From Phycisphaerae bacterium (lineage in GTDB: Bacteria > Planctomycetota > Phycisphaerae > Phycisphaerales > SM1A02), in the NCBI GenBank assembly GCA_016873275.1, contig VGXO01000001.1, forward strand, positions 61,678 to 125,677: a DNA stretch of 64,000 nt, written 5' to 3'. Positions within the stretch are counted from its first letter, which is position 1; each line of letters opens with the position of its first letter. Of the stretch, positions 24,568 through 33,518 are shown piece after piece. The notes under the pieces were generated by a model. That model saw only the letters and a program-made list of their open reading frames with translations, made no database searches and was not told the DNA's origin. The translations under genes and the position numbers were made by a program.

Positions 24568-26139
24568 CTACGGCGCCGGCTCCTCGACCCGCGGGAAGAG
24601 CGCGACCTTCGTCACGCCCGCGTAGGTCCGCGCGGGATCGAGCCGCACCTGCGCCGCGAGCGTGCCGCCCTCCGCGACCGGGGGTCGGGAGAGCGCTCGG
24701 CGGAGCCGGTCCATCGAGCCGGGCATGAGCGGCGACAGGAGCGCGCTCGCCGCCTCGAGCACCTCGAGCGACTGGCGCAGGATCAGCGCAAGCTCGCCGC
24801 GCCGCGCGGGGTCCTTCGCGATCTTGAACGGCTCGGTGCGGTGGATGAAGCCGTCGAGCGACCGCATCAGGCCGATCCCCGCCTCGGCGAGCCGGTCGAT
24901 CGCGAACTCCGACGCCGCCTCCTCCGCCGCCCGCAGCGCCCGCGCGAGCGCCGCCGACCAGTCCTCTCCCGCCACCACCCGCGAGGGATCCTCGACCACG
25001 GGCAGCGTGCCCTCGAAGTAGCGCTCGACCATCGCGGTCACGCGGCTCGCGCCGTTGCCGACGGTGTTGACGAGGTCGGAGAGATACGCCTCGCGGAAGT
25101 GCGCGTCGCGGAAGTCGGCGTCGGAGGCGCCGAGCGGCCCGCGGGTCGCCATGAACCAGCGCCACGCGTCGAGACCGAACCGATCGTGGTAGCCGCGGAT
25201 CGCCTCGAGGTCGATGAAGTTCCCGAGGCTCTTGCTCATCTTCTGCCCGTCCTTGATCCAGAAGGCATGGGCGTAGATGCAGCGGGGCAGCGGCAGGTCG
25301 AGCGCCATCAGGAGCGCCGGCCATACCACCGCGTGGAACCAGAGGATCTCCTTGCCGACGACGTGGAAGGTGGCGGGCCAGTACCTCGCGCGGGGCGATC
25401 CCGCCGGATCCTGCTCGCCGAGACCGAGCGCCGTCGCGTAGTTGAAGAGCGCGTCGATCCACACGTAGACGACGTGCCCCGCCGCGCCCGGCATCGGGAT
25501 GCCCCACGTGAAGTTCGTCCGGGTGATGGGGACGTCCTGCAGGCCTTCCCGGAGCCGACCGATCACCTCGTTGCGACGACCCGCGGGTCGGACGAAGTCG
25601 GGGTTCTCCTCGAGGTGCCGCTCGAGCCTCGAGGTGAAGGCGCTCAGGCGGAAGTAGTAGTTCGACTCCCGCGCCCGCACGAGCGGTCGACCCGAGACGG
25701 GGCTCCGGTAGTCGAGCTCCTTCGCGCGGGTCTCGGTGTGGTACTCCTCCTGCGACTCGTCGTACCAGCCCTCGAACTCGCCGAGGTAGACCGCGCCGGA
25801 GTCCCTCAGCCGCTCGAGGAACCGCTCGACCTGCCGCTCGTGCCGCGGCTCGGTGGTGCGGATGAAGTCGTCGTTGGTGATCCCGAAGTCGCCGAGCACC
25901 CGCCGGAACTCCGCGGAGACCTCGTCGGCGAGCGCCCGCGGCGTCATGCCGCGCTCCTGCGCCGACTTCTCGACCTTCACCCCGTGCTCGTCGGTCCCGG
26001 TCAGGAAGAAGACGTCGCGGCCGGCGAGGCGCATGAACCTCGCCCAGGCGTCGCAGAGCGTCGTCGTATAGGCATGCCCGATGTGCGGCCGGTCGTTGAC
26101 GTAGTAGATCGGCGTGGTGACGTAGGCGGTCTCGGGCAT
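24568..26139 (-). CDS. metG: methionine--tRNA ligase
   Basis: Trimmed to MPETAYVTTPIYYVNDRPHIGHAYTT... (HIGH). KMSKSLGNF is present. Confidence 0.95.
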   Translation of the reverse strand: MPETAYVTTPIYYVNDRPHIGHAYTTTLCDAWARFMRLAGRDVFFLTGTDEHGVKVEKSAQERGMTPRALADEVSAEFRRVLGDFGITNDDFIRTTEPRHERQVERFLERLRDSGAVYLGEFEGWYDESQEEYHTETRAKELDYRSPVSGRPLVRARESNYYFRLSAFTSRLERHLEENPDFVRPAGRRNEVIGRLREGLQDVPITRTNFTWGIPMPGAAGHVVYVWIDALFNYATALGLGEQDPAGSPRARYWPATFHVVGKEILWFHAVVWPALLMALDLPLPRCIYAHAFWIKDGQKMSKSLGNFIDLEAIRGYHDRFGLDAWRWFMATRGPLGASDADFRDAHFREAYLSDLVNTVGNGASRVTAMVERYFEGTLPVVEDPSRVVAGEDWSAALARALRAAEEAASEFAIDRLAEAGIGLMRSLDGFIHRTEPFKIAKDPARRGELALILRQSLEVLEAASALLSPLMPGSMDRLRRALSRPPVAEGGTLAAQVRLDPARTYAGVTKVALFPRVEEPAP

Positions 26140-26196
26140 CGCGCGAGTATAAACCTCGCGGAGGACCTGCCCGCCGTCGCGCGTCGGCGCCCCGTG

Positions 26197-26856
26197 ATGA
26201 TCACCACCGACGACCAAGGCAGGCGACCACGCGGCCGAACGAGCGCGCCCGCGGTCGTCGGCACGATCGTGGTGATCGCCGCGGCGGTGCTCCTCGGGGT
26301 GGTGGGACCGCGTCTCGCCGACCGCGGCCTCGCGCCCACGGGAGTCCCGGTGTCTTCCGTGATCGAGTCGCTCTCCGCCCGTCACGCCGGTCTCGGTCCC
26401 GACCCGGATCCGTCGCGCCTTCCCTCCGACTGGCGGCGGCGCATCGCGGAGGAGACCCATCGAGAGGTGATGCTCCGCGACGACCTCGCCGCCGATGGAT
26501 GGACGCTCGTCGCGTTCCGCGCCGAGCCGCCGCGACCCTTCGCCGACCTGCCCGTCGCCGCGACCGCGCTCCTCGAGGCAGCCGATGGCGGACCACTCCT
26601 CTCGGTCACCGCGATCAGGGATGATGGGTCGATTCACCGCCTCGACGGCTTCGCGCGGCCGCGTCCGCTCCGCGAGGGCGAGCGGCTTCGCCTCGACGGC
26701 TCGCAGACGATCCATGGCACCGCCGTGCTCGCGGTCGTCGAGGGCGATCTGCTCTGGGTCCTCCTCTGCGAGGACGCCGCCCGCCTCGACGCCGTGGAGG
26801 ACGAGCTGCTCGGTCCGCCGCCGACCGCGGGGGACGCCGCGGACTCCCCGGCGTGA
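26197..26856 (+). CDS. hypothetical membrane-anchored protein
   Basis: Tail of the 671-aa fused ORF, trimmed to MITTDDQGRR.... One TM helix (VVGTIVVIAAAVLLGVVG). No family recognised. Confidence 0.5.
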   Translation: MITTDDQGRRPRGRTSAPAVVGTIVVIAAAVLLGVVGPRLADRGLAPTGVPVSSVIESLSARHAGLGPDPDPSRLPSDWRRRIAEETHREVMLRDDLAADGWTLVAFRAEPPRPFADLPVAATALLEAADGGPLLSVTAIRDDGSIHRLDGFARPRPLREGERLRLDGSQTIHGTAVLAVVEGDLLWVLLCEDAARLDAVEDELLGPPPTAGDAADSPA

Positions 26857-26899
26857 TGCGGGGACCCGCTTCGAATCCCTCTCCGCCCATTCCTTGAGC

Positions 26900-26924
26900 G
26901 GTCGCCGCTGCGGCGGCGACCTTT
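26900..26924 (+). terminator. terminator-like hairpin (9-bp stem, TGCG loop, TTT)
   Basis: ggtcgccgc-tgcg-gcggcgacc followed by ttt, 44 nt after the 26197..26856 stop. Confidence 0.4.
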
Positions 26925-26936
26925 GGTGCTTCGACC

Positions 26937-26974
26937 CGTGGTTGTGTTCGCTCGCACCGAGCGGCACAACCACG
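26937..26974. other. long imperfect hairpin at the left edge of the island
   Basis: cgtggttgtg-tt-cgctcg-cac-cgagcg-g-cacaaccacg, giving 10+6 bp of stem. Confidence 0.5.
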
Positions 26975-27126
26975 CTGCGTTTGGGGGGTTACGCGAGGGT
27001 GAAACGAAGCGGTGCGAACCACTGTTTCCGTTTGGGCGGTCGGGTGCTGTGACGCCCAGAATCTCAAACTTGGGCGCCGCTTTGGGGGCGAAGTGCGTCG
27101 CTTTTTGCGTCGCTTTGGAGGCGCGG

Positions 27127-27975
27127 TCAGCCCGCCCGGATCGCGTCTCGCAGCGCCTCGATCGCGGGCGCGCGCTCGGGTGCAACGCCTGCGGCCGCCC
27201 CCTGGAGGACGCCGTCCGCCTTCGTCGCGGCTGCGGAGAGAAGCGGGCTGTCCTCGGCGACGCCCGCCGCGCGCGCGCGCTCCAGCGTGCGCAGGAACTC
27301 GAGCACGGCTCCGTACGCGGCTTGCCAGTCGACCGTCACGACATCGGCCACGTCGCAACGCAGCAGCTGTGCCCACGGCGTCGGATCGAGGATCGTGCAG
27401 AAGCCGTGCTCCAGGCGCACGAGCCCGGCATCCGCCCACGATGCGGCCGTGTCCGCGACGCAGCGGTACGTGTAGCCGGTCGAGTCGGACACGTCGCGGC
27501 AGCGCACGCCGCGCGGGCTTCCGAGGAGCGCCACGATGAGATACGCGGCGCAGTCGTTCCCGAGCACGTCGCGCGACCGCAGGTGAAGCGATGCGGGGGT
27601 CGATGCCGCGAGGCCCACGTGCTTGCGCGTCACGAGTCGGCGAAGGCCGTTGATGCTCCGCCAGGCAGCAACGCGTGTCGCTTCTGCGGGCTCCTGTTCA
27701 TTGCGCCGCGTGAGCGTGTTGAGGCGCTGCGTATTGACGCGCGCGCGGTTCGTGGCGAACCAGCTTCGCACGGCCTCCTCGAGCCGCGGTTCGCTCCCGA
27801 AGAAGTGCAGCGAGCACCACAGCAGCGCCTCGGGGTCGATCACCTCAAGCGGTTGGTCGAACTCCGGTGTCTGGAAGGGCACGCCCAGCTCGCGCCACTG
27901 CACGTGCAGCACGTCGAGCAGCGCCGCGCGGACGCGCTCCTCACGCGATGTAGTAGGCGAGGTCTTCATGGCCAA
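27127..27975 (-). CDS. hypothetical protein with possible winged-helix segment
   Basis: 282-aa ORF that overlaps the upstream NTase gene by about 35 nt. The segment ...CAAYLIVALLGSPRGVRCRDVSDSTGYTYRCVADTAASWADAGLVRLE looks wHTH-like. No family recognised. Confidence 0.55.
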   Translation of the reverse strand: MAMKTSPTTSREERVRAALLDVLHVQWRELGVPFQTPEFDQPLEVIDPEALLWCSLHFFGSEPRLEEAVRSWFATNRARVNTQRLNTLTRRNEQEPAEATRVAAWRSINGLRRLVTRKHVGLAASTPASLHLRSRDVLGNDCAAYLIVALLGSPRGVRCRDVSDSTGYTYRCVADTAASWADAGLVRLEHGFCTILDPTPWAQLLRCDVADVVTVDWQAAYGAVLEFLRTLERARAAGVAEDSPLLSAAATKADGVLQGAAAGVAPERAPAIEALRDAIRAG

Positions 27976-28555
27976 GCTCCTGCAGGAACTCGCGCAGCTC
28001 GGCGCGGAGTTGGTGGTTGCGGTCGGGGATCGTGATCACCCAGTCGATGGCGAACCGCAGCTCTTCTTCGTTCGGGGCGAGTTCGCGCAAGTCCGACTTA
28101 TGCACCGACTGTCGACCGTGTGCGGCGTCGACCGCCGCGAACAGCTTGAAGGCGATCAGGTCGCGCCGGTCCGGAAGCCGCAGCGTGAGGTGCGTGCCGA
28201 TGTGGCGGGGGGTGAGCCTTCCCGTGCATCCAGGTGGCAGGCCGAAGTCGAGGAGTCCCTTGGGACCGAGGTTGACCCAGCTGATCCCAGACGACTTGAG
28301 CTCGGAATGCGCGTCGGCCACGCGCACGATGGCTCGTTCCACCGCGGGTGGGAAGCGATCGATCTGGACGATCTGCAGCGTTGCGGAACTCCAACCGCTG
28401 ATCACGTCGACGTCGCGCGTCGGCCGTTGCACCAGGCCGAGGATCCCGAGGGCGGTACCGCCGCAGACGATCCAGTCCACGGGCTCGGCGCCCTCGATCG
28501 CGAGCGCGTCGTTGAGCTCGCGGAGCAGGGGATGGGTGGCGGCGGGATCGATCAT
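27941..28555 (-). CDS. nucleotidyltransferase-fold protein (AbiEii-like NTase motif, short form)
   Basis: Trimmed to the in-frame ATG (MIDPAATHPLL...), because the upstream codons are AT-rich. WIVCGGTALGILGLVQRPTRDVDVIS fits the hG[GS]x9-13Dh[DE]h motif of pol-beta NTases and AbiEii. Confidence 0.65.
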   Translation of the reverse strand: MIDPAATHPLLRELNDALAIEGAEPVDWIVCGGTALGILGLVQRPTRDVDVISGWSSATLQIVQIDRFPPAVERAIVRVADAHSELKSSGISWVNLGPKGLLDFGLPPGCTGRLTPRHIGTHLTLRLPDRRDLIAFKLFAAVDAAHGRQSVHKSDLRELAPNEEELRFAIDWVITIPDRNHQLRAELREFLQELGHEDLAYYIA

Positions 28556-28640
28556 GGGGGTTCCTCGGCTGGAACAGTAGGCTACAGGGCATAAATGTAG
28601 AAGTTTAAGTTCCACAAAGACGCACCGGAGACTCTTCGAT

Positions 28641-28751
28641 GGACAGATAACTGCTATGACGCCCTACGGCAGTGCAGGAAGGGCGGTCCGATTCGCTCCT
28701 CCTACAGCGGCTGTCCCCGGTGTCACCGGAACCGAAACCCCTTCTCACGCG
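28641..28751. repeat. third, degenerate copy of the island junction module
   Basis: Contains ggacagat and tgtcaccggaaccgaaaccccttctcacgc. Compare cgtcaccggtgccgaaaccccttcgcgc at about 29641 and cgtcaccggtaccgaaaccgcctcgcg at about 32801. Confidence 0.45.
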
Positions 28752-28796
28752 TGCCCGCCATCGATTTCGGCGACGCCGACGGCACGCCGTGGGCGG

Positions 28797-29438
28797 TCAA
28801 CCCCTGGCCGCGAGCAGGACGTCGACGTACGGCGCCATCACCGCCTGCACGCGGTTGATGCGCGCGAAGTGCAGTAGGTCCTTCACCTTTGCATCCTTGC
28901 GACGCAGGTAGGTGCGCAGCGCCTCGATCGCGATGTCCTTGCCGATCTTGTTGCGGAACTTGAAGCAGTCGGCGACGGTCTTCGCGGCCCCGTAGACGCG
29001 GAGCTCGCGACCACCGACCTTGATGCGCTCGATGCCGACGGCAAACGATGCGTCACCGAAGCGATAGAAGCGCACCGGTGGGTGTTCAAGCTTGCGGTCC
29101 TTGAAGCCGCGCGGCACCGCGAGGTCGACCGCATGCGGGATCTGCGTGGTGAGGCGGTGGTGGGCCAGCGCCGAGACAAGACAGACGATTGCCTTGGGCA
29201 CCTTCCGGGCCACCACCGCGAGATCGGGTTCCGATGGCGCTGCATCGGCAAGTTGGTAGACGCCGCGGTCGAGCCTGACCACCGTGCCATCCTCCACGAG
29301 CGCCGCCAGCGTGCGCGGATGGATGCCAGCAGCCTTGGCCTCTTGGGTGCGGAGGATGCCCTCGGCGCGCCGGAAGGCGGCCGTTGCCCTCCGGGTTGGG
29401 GGCTTTGGGATCGGGGTGCTGGAGGGGGCGCGCGGCAT
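28797..29438 (-). CDS. abiEi: AbiEi-family type IV toxin-antitoxin antitoxin / transcriptional regulator
   Basis: ILRTQEAKAAGIHPRTLAALVEDGTVVRLDRGVYQLAD (AbiEi N-terminal wHTH) plus ...IVCLVSALAHHRLTTQIPHAVDLAVP.... Trimmed to MPRAPSS because the first 13 codons of the ORF are AT-rich and hold a promoter-like inverted repeat. Confidence 0.8.
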   Translation of the reverse strand: MPRAPSSTPIPKPPTRRATAAFRRAEGILRTQEAKAAGIHPRTLAALVEDGTVVRLDRGVYQLADAAPSEPDLAVVARKVPKAIVCLVSALAHHRLTTQIPHAVDLAVPRGFKDRKLEHPPVRFYRFGDASFAVGIERIKVGGRELRVYGAAKTVADCFKFRNKIGKDIAIEALRTYLRRKDAKVKDLLHFARINRVQAVMAPYVDVLLAARG

Positions 29439-29450
29439 AGGGATCGAAAG

Positions 29451-29476
29451 TGCTACAGATATCGACAAGTGTAGCA
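29451..29476. promoter_or_regulatory. inverted repeat TGCTACA-N12-TGTAGCA overlapping a TACACT -10-like hexamer upstream of abiEi
   Basis: Read from the sequence. It lies 13-38 nt upstream of the abiEi ATG. Confidence 0.45.
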
Positions 29477-29530
29477 TCTACGATCCATCTTTGTGGATGA
29501 TCTTCGTCGAAAGCCTGTGCTCAGCCCCCG

Positions 29531-29775
29531 CAAAACTGGTCGTCTGAGAAGGACAGATTGGCGGTAATCTGGTCGTCTGAGAAGGACAGATGGTCCTGGC
29601 ACACTGGCCCGACGTATCCCCGCGCCCACGGCGTCACCGCGTCACCGGTGCCGAAACCCCTTCGCGCTCAAGCCGTCGCGCGGACCGGCGCCGCCTGCGC
29701 CTCGGCCTCACCGACCGGGGCATGCACCTGATCGCCACCGCGAAGTGCGCATCCCGCGTCTGCAGGGAGTGCTTC
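29531..29775. repeat. island junction module, copy 1 (about 245 bp)
   Basis: Aligns by eye with 32693..32937 at roughly four-fifths identity. It includes two 23-mers, a palindromic box and the integrase 3' tail. Confidence 0.8.
29536..29591. repeat. two direct 23-bp repeats, CTGGTCGTCTGAGAAGGACAGAT, at 33-bp spacing
   Basis: Identical copies at 29536-29558 and 29569-29591. Anchored on the stop of ORF 29284..29547. Confidence 0.85.
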
Positions 29776-29934
29776 GCCGCCACCAGCGGACTGCGGCCAA
29801 CCCAGTTGGCGACCACGTGGACGGGAGAGGTCTCGGCCCAGTCGGTGGCGAAGTTCGAAGTTCGCGCGCACGACGCACAAGGACGGTGGCCACGAATCGG
29901 ACTCCGCCCGGCGGCCCGGACACGAGCCGATCGG
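29668..29934 (-). pseudogene. tyrosine recombinase C-terminal remnant (frameshifted)
   Basis: Hand translation: ...CASCARTSNFATDWAETSPVHVVANWVGRSPLVAAKHSLQTRDAHFAVAI.... It resembles the box II end of planctomycete-type integrases (LRaS..TeL....P.HVv..WlGhS..vA.kHYLQvtdeHF). The expected Tyr reads Ser, the frame breaks before the ...GEAEAQAAPVRATA stop, and there is no N-terminal part. Confidence 0.55.
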
Positions 29935-31308
29935 TCACTGATCGCCCAAGGAAGGGAGGCTGCCGCCCTCGTCGTCCACCGCTTCCCAGAAGGCCCGCTT
30001 GAGCCGGTGGCGGGACGCCAGTTCGGCGTCGAACGCTCGCTGGTCGGCGTTCAGTCCGGCGACCGGGGCCAGCGCCCGCATCCGGACGAGGTACCACGCG
30101 GCGTGTGCGTAGACCTTGCGGCGGCCATCCGCGAGGATCGACTCGAGCATCGCTCGGTAGAGGCGCCAACTCGCGCTCGGCGCGGCCGGCTCGAGACGCT
30201 TCGCAAGCCGCAGCAGCACGCCGTACTCGTGGCCGTCGAGTTCCGCGGCCCGCTCGGTGACCAGCTGTGCTGCCTCGTGCAGGGCGTCCGCCTCGAGCAG
30301 GAAGTCAAGCGCGACATGGACGTCGGGATGACGCGACGCCACACCGAGCGCCCGCTTCCGCCGCTCCGTCGCGCCGGTGTCCGGGCTCGAACGCGCCTCG
30401 ATGTCCGCAAGCGCCGCGAGGCTCGGTCGGCGACTGAACTCCTCCCACAGTGCTGCAGCGGCCTCGTCCAATCGCCCGAGCCGACGCAACGCCAACGAGC
30501 GCACCATCGCCGCACCATACGGCTCGTCGTGCGGCCGACTTGGATCACGATCCCGATGCGCTGCCACCGCGCGATCGATCCACGCGAGCGCCTCCTCGTG
30601 GCGGCCGGCCTCCATCAGTCGTCGTGCGATCGCGATGCCAAGGTGATGCGCCGGGCCGTCGAGGTTGCACAGGCGGATGAACTCGTCGACTTCCCCCAAG
30701 CCGTCCGCGATGTCGCGGAGATGGGTCGCGAGGCTCGATCGTGCGCTCAGCCGGCTGCTCGACTCGCGCGACCAGGAAGCCCGTTCCGCGGCGGTCAGCG
30801 GAGGAACGGCCGCGAGCTCGGCCTCGTAGCGGCGGCGCAGCGTGTGAAGCCCCTCGGGCCCGAGCGCGGCGACGAATCCTGCGATCATGTGGTCGGAGAT
30901 CGGGCTCGCGGCCTTCTCGACGCGACTGCGGACCATGGCAGCCAGCTTCTTCCGGTCCCGCGGTTCGATGCGGGCCCATGCCGCACCCCAGAGCCGGGTC
31001 GCCCTCGAGCACAGCGGATGGAACACGCCGCCCGAGTCGTCGATCCGTTCGGTCACCGGACCAGATGAGTTCACGATCCGCTTCAGCAGCGGCTCGGCCT
31101 CGGTGGCCCGACCCGCCTCGATCATCCGCTCGAGCTCATCGAGGCAGGGGGCGAGCATCGCCGCGAGTTCGGAGGCGACTCCGTACGGCCCGGGGCGCCG
31201 CCGTGCAGACGCGAAGACGGCTTCCACCGCCTCGTCGATCGGGATCGCCACACCGGTGTTCCTCGGCTTCCTCCTCAATGCCCGAGCTCCCGGCGAGCTT
31301 CGGGGCAC
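29935..31308 (-). CDS. hypothetical alpha-helical repeat protein
   Basis: 457-aa ORF with coding-like composition, immediately downstream of the ATPase. No family confidently recognised. Confidence 0.6.
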   Translation of the reverse strand: MPRSSPGARALRRKPRNTGVAIPIDEAVEAVFASARRRPGPYGVASELAAMLAPCLDELERMIEAGRATEAEPLLKRIVNSSGPVTERIDDSGGVFHPLCSRATRLWGAAWARIEPRDRKKLAAMVRSRVEKAASPISDHMIAGFVAALGPEGLHTLRRRYEAELAAVPPLTAAERASWSRESSSRLSARSSLATHLRDIADGLGEVDEFIRLCNLDGPAHHLGIAIARRLMEAGRHEEALAWIDRAVAAHRDRDPSRPHDEPYGAAMVRSLALRRLGRLDEAAAALWEEFSRRPSLAALADIEARSSPDTGATERRKRALGVASRHPDVHVALDFLLEADALHEAAQLVTERAAELDGHEYGVLLRLAKRLEPAAPSASWRLYRAMLESILADGRRKVYAHAAWYLVRMRALAPVAGLNADQRAFDAELASRHRLKRAFWEAVDDEGGSLPSLGDQ

Positions 31309-31333
31309 GGAACCGGAAGCCGCCTCCGCCCGC

Positions 31334-32677
31334 TCATGGCGACGCCAGCAGCCACTGGTGGGCCGCGATCACGCGTGTCTTGCGATGGGTCATCGAGCGA
31401 ACGAGGCCCGGGTCGAGGACGATCACGGCGCGTTCGGCCTTCGGATGCTCGTCGCCCCCGGCATCGAGAGCGCGAGTCTCGCGGCTCCACGTCGCCGGGT
31501 CCGACCCGTCGGCGCAGACCTGGATCAGTTCCTGCCGACCATCCGGGTGGCGTGCGAGGAAGTCGACCTCGAAGCCGTCCTTCGTCTTCACGTAGGCGAC
31601 TTCGGCGCCGCGCCGGGACAGCTCGTTGTAGACGGCGGTCTCTAGCGCGTGGCCGGTGTTCGATCGCCCGCTCGTGTCGAAGGCGTCGATCAGACCGGGA
31701 TCCGCGGGGTAGACCTTCCGTGGGTTCGTGTTTCGTCGGCGCTCCGAATCCGTGGCGACCGGCACCGCGGCGATGACGAAGGCGTCGATCAGGTGGTCCA
31801 GCAGCGCGTGAACCGTGTCCTTCGCCACGTTGTGGCCTTGCGAGCGAAGATCGTCGTGCAGCTTGTTGGCGCTGAGGCTGCCGCAAGGGTTCCGCAGTGC
31901 GTGTCGGATGATCCAGCGCAGTGCGGCGACCTGCGACACCGCATGCCGCTCGATCACGTCCCGGAAGAGCATGGTGTCGATGTAGCCCTGCAAGAGCGCG
32001 ATCCGGGTGGCGCGGTCGAGCGGCCGCTTGCCCGAACCTTGCGCTTCGGGAAACCCGCCCACCACGAGGTACTCGCGGAGGCGCTTTTCGACCGCGCTCC
32101 TCAATGCTGCCGTCAGTCGATCCGCACGCACCGTCGGCTCCTCGCCGCGGTGGCGGAGCGCCTCGCGGAAGCTGAAGGGCGCGATCACGGTGGGCATGGC
32201 GCGGCCGCGGAGGGAGCTGTGGATCTCGCGCGACAGCATGCGCGCAGACGACCCGGACACGACGATGTCGATCGACTCGGTGTCGAGCACGCGCCGGACG
32301 AAACGATCCCAGCCTTCCACCAGCTGGATCTCGTCGAGGAACCACGCGGCACGGCCCTTCCTTCCATCCTTGCCGCGGATCTCCGGGTGGCGGCGGAAGT
32401 ACTCCTCGAGGAGGGCGTCGAGATGGGACGCGTCGATCCCTGCGAGACGGTCGTCGTCAAAGCTCAGGTAGATCGATCGTTCCGGCGGACCGCTCTTGCG
32501 CCGCTCGGCAAGCAGCTGCCTGAGGAAGCACGTCTTTCCCGCGCGACGCATCCCGATCACGGCATGCGCCTTCCCCGGCACGGCGGGCGGGACGGCGTCG
32601 CGCCGCGTGAGGGTGGTGGCGGCAAGCGGCAGCAGCGCGTCGCTGAGCTTCTCCTGGAGCGCGTCGAGCAGGGGCAT
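31334..32677 (-). CDS. AAA+ ATPase of the AAA_14/DUF4143 type
   Basis: Trimmed to MPLLDALQEKL.... Contains GMRRAGKT (Walker A), AWFLDEIQLVEGW (Walker B) and VVSGSSARML...LRGRA...PFSFREAL, typical of this family. Confidence 0.85.
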   Translation of the reverse strand: MPLLDALQEKLSDALLPLAATTLTRRDAVPPAVPGKAHAVIGMRRAGKTCFLRQLLAERRKSGPPERSIYLSFDDDRLAGIDASHLDALLEEYFRRHPEIRGKDGRKGRAAWFLDEIQLVEGWDRFVRRVLDTESIDIVVSGSSARMLSREIHSSLRGRAMPTVIAPFSFREALRHRGEEPTVRADRLTAALRSAVEKRLREYLVVGGFPEAQGSGKRPLDRATRIALLQGYIDTMLFRDVIERHAVSQVAALRWIIRHALRNPCGSLSANKLHDDLRSQGHNVAKDTVHALLDHLIDAFVIAAVPVATDSERRRNTNPRKVYPADPGLIDAFDTSGRSNTGHALETAVYNELSRRGAEVAYVKTKDGFEVDFLARHPDGRQELIQVCADGSDPATWSRETRALDAGGDEHPKAERAVIVLDPGLVRSMTHRKTRVIAAHQWLLASP

Positions 32678-32692
32678 GTCGCAAGGGTAGTC

Positions 32693-32937
32693 CGAAACTG
32701 GCCGTCTGAGAAGGATAGATTGTAGAGAATCTGGCCGTCTGAGAAGGACAGATGGTTCCGGCTCACTGGCTCGACGCATCCCCGCGCCCACGGTGTCACC
32801 GCGTCACCGGTACCGAAACCGCCTCGCGTTCAGGCCGTTGCCCGGATGGGGGCTGCCTGCGCCTCGACCTCTCCCACGCGGGGCATGTCCCTGATCGCCA
32901 CCTCGAAGTGCGCGTTCGCCCTCCACTGCGGGCGCGG
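32693..32937. repeat. island junction module, copy 2
   Basis: Direct repeat of 29531..29775, offset 3162 bp. Confidence 0.8.
32698..32753. repeat. two direct 23-bp repeats, CTGGCCGTCTGAGAAGGA(T/C)AGAT, at 33-bp spacing
   Basis: Copies at 32698-32720 and 32731-32753. The nearer copy ends 20 nt upstream of the ATPase ATG at 32677. Confidence 0.85.
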
Positions 32938-33518
32938 GCACTGATCGATGATCCGCTGCACCACCTCGTGACGCACGCACACGGCGCGGTCGGGAGTCGA
33001 CTGCGGCCTGGCGCGCAGGTGCTCGAAGGGGTTCTCGGGGACGAGCTTCCAGCGCCGCGCGCGGCTGAAGATGCACTTGGCCACGTTGACGCGCTTCGCG
33101 ATCGTCGCCGCGGCAAGCGGCTTGCGCCGGTCGCCCTTCCCGGATGAACGATCCCTGTTGCCACATGCTGCGGAACCCCCGATCGAGGTACGTCCGTCGG
33201 CACGACCGGTGGTCGCCCGGGGCGCCCGCCCGCTCGCGCAGCGCGACCCACCCAGGAAGCCCCCACGTTGCCCCGTGTGCCCTCGGCCACACCCAGTCCG
33301 CCCGACGCCGGTCCCGCCGCCCCTGCGTTCCGTGTGGCACCAGTACGCGTCCGCCCGCCGCCCGCACCCTCCGTCCGGTCTTCCGCCTTCTGCGCGCGAT
33401 CGCGCCACTCGTCGAGACCCTCGGGATAGAGCCGGGGTTTCGAGTCCTCTCCGCCCCAAGGTCGTTTCCGGACCTTCCCCGTGCTCCTCTTCCGGAACAT
33501 CTTTTCCGGACCAGTCAT
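32830..33518 (-). pseudogene. tyrosine recombinase remnant: N-terminal/core-binding part fused to the extreme C-terminal tail
   Basis: ...PLAAATIAKRVNVAKCIFSRARRWKLVPENPFEHLRARPQSTPDRAVCVRHEVVQRIIDQCPRPQWRA joins directly to NAHFEVAIRDMPRVGEVEAQAAPIRATA. The whole catalytic domain is missing. The upstream N-terminal part is spread over three frames (MTGPEKMFRKRSTGKVRKRPWGG... in another frame). Confidence 0.5.

Follow-up and report, generated by a model that had tools for sequence, protein, structure and literature searches.

In the 64,000-nucleotide stretch analysed here (the window; contig VGXO01000001.1 of a Phycisphaerae bacterium), a short junction module recurs among minus-strand defence and toxin-antitoxin genes, twice in full (modules A and B) and once in degenerate form (copy C). 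Each full module comprises the 3' tail of a tyrosine integrase gene, an 18-bp box (GTCACCGGTRCCGAAACC), a spacer and two direct copies of a 23-bp motif (CTGGYCGTCTGAGAAGGAYAGAT, hereafter the 23-mer or R23); the genes which it heads are referred to as cargo. Along the minus strand, starting at 33.2 kb and ending at 27.1 kb, come integrase remnant B, box, two 23-mers, ATPase, DUF6880 protein, integrase remnant A, box, two 23-mers, AbiEi, box, degenerate 23-mer, nucleotidyltransferase (NTase) and a protein of 282 amino acids (aa), p282. As a whole, the region 26870-33458 (6.6 kb) is read as a tandem array, now decayed, in which two or more related integrative islands target the 3' end of tRNA-Tyr(GTA), with the 23-mer as an operator-like cargo site, a reading to which a probability of about 0.7 is given. 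Loci used for comparison carry L numbers. The genes and junction elements, with lengths in nucleotides (nt), are the following:

27127..27975, minus strand: p282, always paired with the upstream nucleotidyltransferase; 88-93% identical and syntenic in L003 and L021
27941..28555, minus strand: nucleotidyltransferase, with weak matches only (Pfam AbiEii 3.4e-05, DUF6036 5.8e-04)
28597..28739, minus strand: junction copy C, with a box at 28722-28739 (1 mismatch), a diverged spacer, a degenerate 23-mer at 28626-28648 (15/23) and the hairpin GTGGAACTTAAACTTCTAC at 28597-28615
28797..29477, minus strand: AbiEi antitoxin/regulator (Pfam AbiEi_4 1.8e-11; PADLOC AbiEi 7.7e-70)
29536-29558 and 29569-29591, minus strand: the two 23-mers of module A, with a 33-nt period
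29641..29658, minus strand: box of module A (GGTTTCGGCACCGGTGAC on the minus strand), then the 8-nt repeat GGTGACRC
29671..29849, minus strand: integrase remnant A, reduced to residues ~333-392, frameshifted by 1 nt and with KHS in place of the catalytic KHY (from three-frame translation and a tblastn comparison with the intact P0001)
29935..31308, minus strand: DUF6880 / TPR protein, downstream partner of the ATPase (Pfam DUF6880 8e-54); same pairing in L026
31334..32677, minus strand: AAA_14 + DUF4143 ATPase, the PADLOC defence candidate PDC-S01 (AAA_14 1.5e-29, DUF4143 2.5e-15, PDC-S01 5.4e-88)
32698-32720 and 32731-32753, minus strand: the two 23-mers of module B
32803..32820, minus strand: box of module B
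32833..33207, minus strand: integrase remnant B, residues ~125-221 fused in frame to 365-392

A previous reading of this DNA, made from the sequence only, had described two modules of about 245 bp in direct orientation, spaced by 3162 bp, and this observation is confirmed. A repeat search of the window matched 29533-29720 with 32695-32882 (188 nt, 85% identity, spacing 3162), the repeat continuing for a further 35 nt at 91% identity with a spacing of 3163, i.e. with a 1-nt indel. Over their whole length (tail, box, spacer and both 23-mers), modules A and B are 79.8% identical. The box is found three times in 64 kb (28722, 29641 and 32803) vs. 0.11 expected, and the 23-mer four times (29536, 29569, 32698 and 32731) vs. 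0.00 expected, all copies of both sharing a single orientation and lying within the island region. No further 23-mer site was detected in the 64 kb, even with a looser symmetric half-site pattern. The third, degenerate copy announced by the sequence-only reading also exists, in a shorter form. An integrase tail, a box and repeats are, as had been described, present in A and B; in C, the alignment score of a putative tail is only at shuffle level, with no detectable homology. In A and B, the 3' integrase codons are, as proposed, true coding tails, which align to an intact 392-aa relative, while the box, supposed to sit directly at the stop codon, actually begins about 10 nt past it. The two further propositions, that every copy stands upstream of a minus-strand unit (PDC-S01 ATPase plus DUF6880 protein for B, AbiEi for A, and nucleotidyltransferase plus p282 for C) and that the module is tied to one integrase family and heads cargo units, both stand. 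The AbiEi-box-NTase-p282 order of the copy C region is also present in L003 and L021.

Both integrase copies of the window are pseudogenes, remnant B having lost its first ~124 residues and the whole catalytic domain. A full 392-aa integrase (P0001; Pfam Phage_integrase 8.4e-14) was found by protein search on contig L047, with the tyrosine recombinase catalytic residues kept (AGLR, HNMRAS and KHY). The order on this contig is orf102, orf117, integrase, box, 67 nt, two exact 23-mers and AbiEi, and the box and two 23-mers likewise follow integrase remnants in L109 and L110; these three loci were retrieved via the integrase protein and not via the 23-mer motif. From translation upstream of the module, the integrases of L004 and L028 are intact across the gene portion contained in the locus, and most relatives also carry integrase remnants, of varied length. 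As for the more distant family members, they end directly on an opposite-strand tRNA gene, tRNA-Lys in L049 and tRNA-Val in L050. L049 also carries HTH_17 and a DUF3987 primase, while no primase/replicase, AlpA-type regulator or packaging-redirection genes were found in the window, L047 or L109.

The sequence-only reading had taken the box as a putative core site of the integrase. Since the islands are bounded by tRNA-Tyr 3'-end repeats (26870 and 33458 in the window), the box is not the attachment (att) core; the borders, checked in relatives, are the last 20-25 nt of tRNA-Tyr(GTA). The att features of the window are the following:

26870..26889, plus strand: last 20 nt of tRNA-Tyr(GTA), TTCGAATCCCTCTCCGCCCA, the att core at the cargo end of the array; exact 20/20 match to the tRNA-Tyr 3' ends of L004, L021 and L016
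26896..27120, plus strand: island arm beside the core, with two hairpins, one terminator-like (26896-26921) and one long (GTGGTTGTG...CACAACCAC, 26938-26973), and with GCGYCGCTTT in direct repeat (27095-27118)
33200..33433, plus strand: G+C-rich arm on the far side of the core, homologous to the stretch preceding the core copy in L047, L077 and L026
33434..33458, plus strand: diverged second tRNA-Tyr 3' end (GGGGTTTCGAGTCCTCTCCGCCCCA), the other array boundary; about 21/25 with one indel

The same island arm follows tRNA-Tyr in L028, L021, L016, L077 and L109. An intact tRNA-Tyr(GTA) adjoins the cargo end in L004, L008, L016, L021, L028, L082 and L109, and is not present at the border in the window, L026, L033, L058, L069 and L077. 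Beside 26870-26889, no tRNA body was detected by ARAGORN, only the 20-nt fragment. In both L077 and L026, arm, core and arm follow one another with no tRNA body, a hallmark of islands that have been stacked. Rfam searches of the island, L047 and 26000-27200 (gathering score, E ≤ 1 or 10) returned only two distant tRNAs. The G+C-rich stretch before the second core was considered as a transfer-messenger RNA or tRNA gene and rejected, only its last 25 nt matching tRNA-Tyr.

Concerning the repeats of the arms, they have a motif of their own (GCCGCTTT), present on both sides of the core in L077 and with 0 shared 8-mers with the 23-mer. GCGYCGCTTT / GCCGCTTTC direct repeats flank the tRNA-Tyr core on both sides (window 27095-27118; L077 arms), and make more plausible candidates than the 23-mers for the arm-type sites of the integrase. 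The latter were discarded in that role: no 8-mer is common to them and the att arms, and 1-3 kb of cargo separates them from the core. Extra boxes were noted in L047 (536-553 and 6178-6195) and L077 (11831-11848): one is in inverted orientation and lies ~320 nt past the att core, where the G+C-rich arm ends on its outer side, and another is inside the 3' end of orf102. Cargo and att region are there bracketed by inverted boxes, although the box is of low complexity (GGT-NCC-GGT) and the arrangement could partly be due to chance. Behind the box, the 8-nt unit GGTGACRC (window 29633-29648 and 32795-32810) has two copies in most loci and four in L076 (about 2160-2245), where it shifts the box-to-repeat spacing from 67 to 86 nt; among loci, this spacing is 61, 67, 68 or 86 nt. 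Two other ideas about the box were abandoned. Its nine viral matches are unrelated coding sequences of low complexity (GSGTGD-type), i.e. chance, and inspection against L049 showed no D-arm or anticodon-arm remnant after the box, as a tRNA relic would have.

In freshwater Phycisphaerae, the intact island, followed in the direction of the integrase, starts with a tRNA-Tyr 3' fragment and the G+C-rich arm; variable genes, orf102, orf117 and the tyrosine integrase come next, then the box and, about 49 nt further on in the generic case, two 23-mers. Defence or toxin-antitoxin cargo follows, and the island closes with an arm and the opposite-strand tRNA-Tyr. Repeated integration at one tRNA-Tyr would have stacked such islands, and deletions would then have removed most of each integrase together with everything between one cargo and the next integrase. 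What was left before each cargo would be the integrase tail, the box and the 23-mers, that is, the 245-bp module. The DUF6880 stop and integrase residue 333 are just 55 nt apart; a deletion has therefore carried off both arms with the core between them, orf102, orf117 and the greater part of integrase A. Similar deletions elsewhere end just upstream of the box or the 23-mers, in integrase tails in L016, L033, L039 and L019 and in the last 15 p282 codons in L082. Because the deletions stop short of it, the box-23-mer stretch appears to have been retained for the cargo, and it is presumably needed by the genes downstream. The layout had been called non-standard by the sequence-only reading; it is that of ordinary tandem integration at a tRNA followed by deletion, with remnants of many lengths in relatives and no repeat on both sides of a cassette.

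Modules A and B belong to different lineages and are separate acquisitions. Module A shares 92% identity with the module of L028 and 80% with module B, whereas module B reaches 86% with the modules of L004, L008 and L074 (the L080 module, 99.6% identical to B, comes from the same genome). As each is closer to modules of other genomes, the two were not duplicated in place.

The 23-mer and the next two bases form a 25-bp pseudo-palindrome, ATCTGTCCTTCT-C-AGACGGCCAGAT, in which 10 of the 12 pairs are matched, the two mismatches being always the same. Its distribution was established by a search of one genome per species and of metagenomes, with part of the 23-mer as query. The module is present in many metagenome-assembled genomes of Phycisphaerae/Planctomycetota, only in islands beside tRNA-Tyr and usually at one locus per genome. 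Around 50 arrays were collected from genomes and metagenomes, with either one 23-mer or two copies 33 nt apart. Upstream, they fall into several classes (integrase tail and box, AbiEi tail and box, p282 stop codon 2-4 nt before the motif, and others), and downstream they head the PDC-S01 ATPase, three kinds of AbiEi leader or an HTH_17-PIN pair. Upstream and downstream classes combine freely, and homology stops exactly at the edges of the motif.

In eleven distinct ATPase-linked arrays, the 23-mers are conserved at 99%, the linker at 85%, the 20-nt leader at 96%, the spacer at 76% and the box at 77%, vs. 96, 96 and 90% for ATPase codon positions 1, 2 and 3, respectively. The ATPase start codon lies 19-20 nt from the 23-mer (its ATG is 20 nt past the second one in the window), also in distant lineages where nothing else can be aligned upstream. 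The 23-mer would be a sequence-specific, operator-like protein-recognition site that overlaps or adjoins the cargo promoter, and an ATPase transcript would on this view be leaderless or nearly so. Being short and perfectly conserved, it would double as a recombination joint for the exchange of cargo modules. In two distant Planctomycetota loci (L002 6977-7135 and L015 4849-5010), only two 23-mers and the first ~28 ATPase codons are left, these remnants being joined to a PadR-type operon with a palindrome of its own. An antisense open reading frame starting in the 23-mer (MVPAHW...) was judged non-coding because the box-to-repeat spacing varies and its amino acids are not kept from one spacer type to another.

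Exact copies of the 21-25-nt core of the 23-mer were also found in at least four phage contexts, against about 0.05 chance matches expected in the viral collection (estimated from a 17-nt pattern count). The copies in phage contexts are located as follows:

L089, 3645-3665
L081, 2942-2962
L064, 388-412
L107, about 262-286
L078, 842-897

The exact 21-nt core is present in 14 IMG/VR contigs, which form two groups; counted over the 21-25-nt motif, 12 IMG/VR contigs have it in the intergenic context and 5-6 in that of a gene with an HExxH motif. The first group (~40 kb) has genes for a terminase, a portal and a major head protein, and its full 23-mer occupies part of a 35-nt gap between phosphatase/exonuclease and Lys-rich genes. 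A related group (50 kb), in which a DNA polymerase is encoded, carries the motif within an 88-aa HExxH gene, where it encodes TWPSEKDR; the HExxH homolog of the first group has 15 of 21 motif bases. A phage-type DNA polymerase A gene (L064) contains all 25 nt as a patch of the same length, a 93% homolog shares 23/25 of them, and the codons of a closer-to-native homolog are unrelated at this position. In coding DNA, the phage copies thus replace native codons, the length being unchanged. Finally, L078, an AT-rich contig that looks T7-like and encodes a primase zinc finger, carries two 23-mers 33 nt apart, preceded by a hairpin 17/18 identical to window 28597-28614; neither a relative of this contig nor a copy of the array was found among GenBank phages. 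The hairpin GTGGAAC-TTAAA-GTTCCAC is common to copy C (28597-28615), L078 (899-916) and the terminator after the phage HExxH gene (L081, about 2790-2810). L078 1700-1759 is an Illumina adapter left by an untrimmed assembly, the 23-mers being mid-contig with AT-rich DNA on both sides. Two phage functions were tried for the motif and rejected: a T7-type promoter, since in the two large phage groups it is intragenic or oppositely oriented, and a packaging (pac/cos) site, the terminase genes being 3.8 kb away.

Several observations weigh against the tandem-array reading or its operator part. The window array adjoins no intact tRNA-Tyr, and the ~690 nt from metG to the tRNA-Tyr fragment (26184-26869) are unaccounted for, with no recognised gene and no tRNA body. 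A scan of the region for sigma-70 consensus and terminators yielded nothing above shuffles; the candidate -35 (TTCTCA) and -10 (TACCCT) are weak, and TACCCT is lost in distant lineages. The AbiEi and HTH_17-PIN modules have palindromic operator candidates of their own downstream of the 23-mers, and may be able to do without the latter. Exact copies inside phage genes are unexplained by an operator. Also, a sub-pattern of the 23-mer served to find most loci, which inflates its apparent conservation; the 23-mer copy of the genome scan that was free of this bias has just 0.85 mismatches per 23 nt, and the integrase-found L047, L109 and L110 likewise hold two exact 23-mers.

An integron-like platform, in which the integrase would recombine at the box or 23-mers and the cargo units would be mobile cassettes, would suit the combinatorial shuffling of flanks around arrays of one or two 23-mers, with breaks exactly at the motif edges. 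By eye, TCCTTCTCAG in the 23-mer also matches 8/10 of TCCCTCTCCG in the tRNA-Tyr core. Nevertheless, in six loci (L004, L028, L021, L016, L109 and the window), the stretch from the last cargo to the arm contains neither a 23-mer nor a box, and some cargo joints lack the 23-mer altogether (DUF6880/HTH17 in L026, DUF6880/integrase tail in the window). The 25-bp palindrome has a 1-nt centre, unlike the arm-spacer-arm geometry of tyrosine-recombinase cores, most integrase copies beside modules are dead, and the true att site is tRNA-Tyr. The integrase, moreover, has no integron-integrase signature in NCBIfam, just weak Xer-type matches far below cut-offs, and a cassette platform is altogether improbable. 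A duplication in place of a 3.2-kb unit would account for two direct copies in the same orientation 3162 bp apart, but not for identities of 92% between A and L028 and 86% between B and L004/L008 when A and B share 80%, nor for the unrelated DNA between and after the copies (ATPase-DUF6880 vs. AbiEi); it is extremely unlikely. A dispersed element of the repetitive extragenic palindrome or miniature inverted-repeat type, or an IS200/IS605-type hairpin, mobilised in trans and independent of the integrase, would suit an imperfect palindrome with conserved mismatches that occurs as one or two direct copies in unrelated places, phage DNA included. Yet the window holds four copies and a degenerate one, all in the island, and the species scan mostly shows one locus per genome, with copies always at cargo heads and in a single orientation. 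The idea of a repeat of this kind spread genome-wide is contradicted by scans of species representatives and metagenomes, no complete genome being among them, in which only tRNA-Tyr-island copies appear. As the phage coding copies are same-length patches and not insertions, and no Y1/RAYT transposase was noticed in the loci in a search that was not exhaustive, a dispersed element is very improbable.

A structured RNA (leader, small RNA or antitermination site) is hardly tenable: the non-coding position upstream of genes is conserved and the motif can form a hairpin, but Rfam yielded nothing even at E ≤ 1, the array folds no better than its shuffles (z = -0.08), the hairpin reaches only -5.8 kcal/mol, neither of the two mismatched pairs is ever compensated, and G15A and C20T, the variants seen, break pairs. 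The phage copies point to yet another explanation, by which the 23-mer would be a nucleic-acid recognition sequence common to islands and host phages, whether as a decoy, as a switch that responds to phage or as a Chi-like mark of 'self' for the nuclease-ATPase, with the junction as sensor. The exact motif in at least four phage contexts where hardly any chance match is expected, and a need for more than 20 contiguous bases, which is unusual for a protein site, speak for it. Conversely, no partner protein or RNA has been identified, no homolog of an island protein lies within the phage stretches examined, the orientation relative to phage genes is inconsistent, the hosts of the motif-bearing phages are not established and cultured phages gave no match, so that this explanation, too, is on the whole unlikely. 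If it held, the motif of more than 20 bp would link phages and host defence islands, which set one or two copies of it right before defence cargo, PDC-S01 foremost; a protein or a guide would read it as a mark of self or non-self, as a decoy or as a switch triggered by phage, a tentative idea at most. Phages of these Phycisphaerae would then, just as doubtfully, have repeatedly written the exact motif into intergenic DNA, a DNA polymerase gene and an HExxH gene. We know of no description of such an island-phage recognition mechanism.

Tandem islands built at tRNA genes by tyrosine integrases are an established, Islander-type pattern, and the tandem array favoured here shares with them the tyrosine integrase, the tRNA 3'-end border repeats, the arm-core-arm junctions and the decay of older integrases. 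It differs by its cargo slot of 1-3 kb between integrase and tRNA and, in the window, by the lack of a tRNA body. Defence-cargo hotspots of P2-like phages and P4-like satellites, reportedly described by Rousset et al. in 2022, have a comparable frame of conserved integrase and core genes around a slot with swapped defence or toxin-antitoxin systems, but no capsid-hijack, primase or packaging genes were seen in the present subfamily, and its slot is headed by a near-invariant 23-bp motif. Integrons consist of IntI, an attI with direct-repeat IntI sites and attC-bounded cassettes; an integrase, direct repeats beside the point of cargo variation and cargo in one orientation are found here too, whereas the integrase is co-directional with the cargo, cassette 3' ends have no attC-like site and att is a tRNA. 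The PeSL (promoter-early stem-loop) regulatory cassettes, said by Arbiol et al. (2010) to mediate module shuffling in T4-type phages, are likewise short conserved regulatory sequences that head small gene modules and give homology for shuffling, but they belong to phage hyperplastic regions and not to host islands, and the present 25-bp pseudo-palindrome is without a recognisable promoter consensus. As for the AbiEi operators of type IV AbiE, reportedly two 23-bp inverted repeats (Hampton et al., 2018), the likeness lies in two 23-bp repeats upstream of abiEi. Here, these are direct repeats, they also head ATPase/PIN modules in islands devoid of abiEi (L028 and L077), and abiEi has its own inverted repeat nearer its start.

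The junction module itself requires no new biology, and the 23-mer is a new, unexplained conserved motif heading cargo modules. The locus records a defence hotspot at tRNA-Tyr from the little-studied freshwater Phycisphaerae, and illustrates that dead integrase tails can mimic a cassette system. Should the 23-mer be a regulatory or recognition site, it would offer a handle on the control of unvalidated candidates such as PDC-S01 and on how defence hotspots exchange their cargo. As a sequence tag, it may also help to connect uncultured phages with these hosts.

Regarding the cargo genes, the AbiEi of the window appears to be without its cognate AbiEii: the gene that follows abiEi is 240 nt away, across copy C, and its AbiEii match is weak (24 bits), while canonical overlapping AbiEi-AbiEii pairs are present in L004, L039 and L109. 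A palindromic operator candidate, GCTACA-N12-TGTAGC, is located at the abiEi 5' end. The gene following abiEi (NTase) and p282 (window 27127-28555) form a conserved pair in L003 and L021, always after AbiEi and a junction copy; with no family match for p282 in Pfam, NCBIfam or PADLOC, the two may constitute an undescribed two-gene module. In the ATPase, DUF4143 is reportedly a PD-(D/E)XK family (PMC3424549), and PDC-S01 is a very common candidate defence system, as yet unvalidated (PMC12988326). Across islands, the cargoes are AbiE, PDC-S01 and HTH_17-PIN, with BREX nearby. In related islands, BREX genes (PglZ, PglX-like methyltransferase and BrxB) or a Fic-domain protein lie beside integrase remnants (L109 1-8704; L019 430-2184; L039 767-3082).

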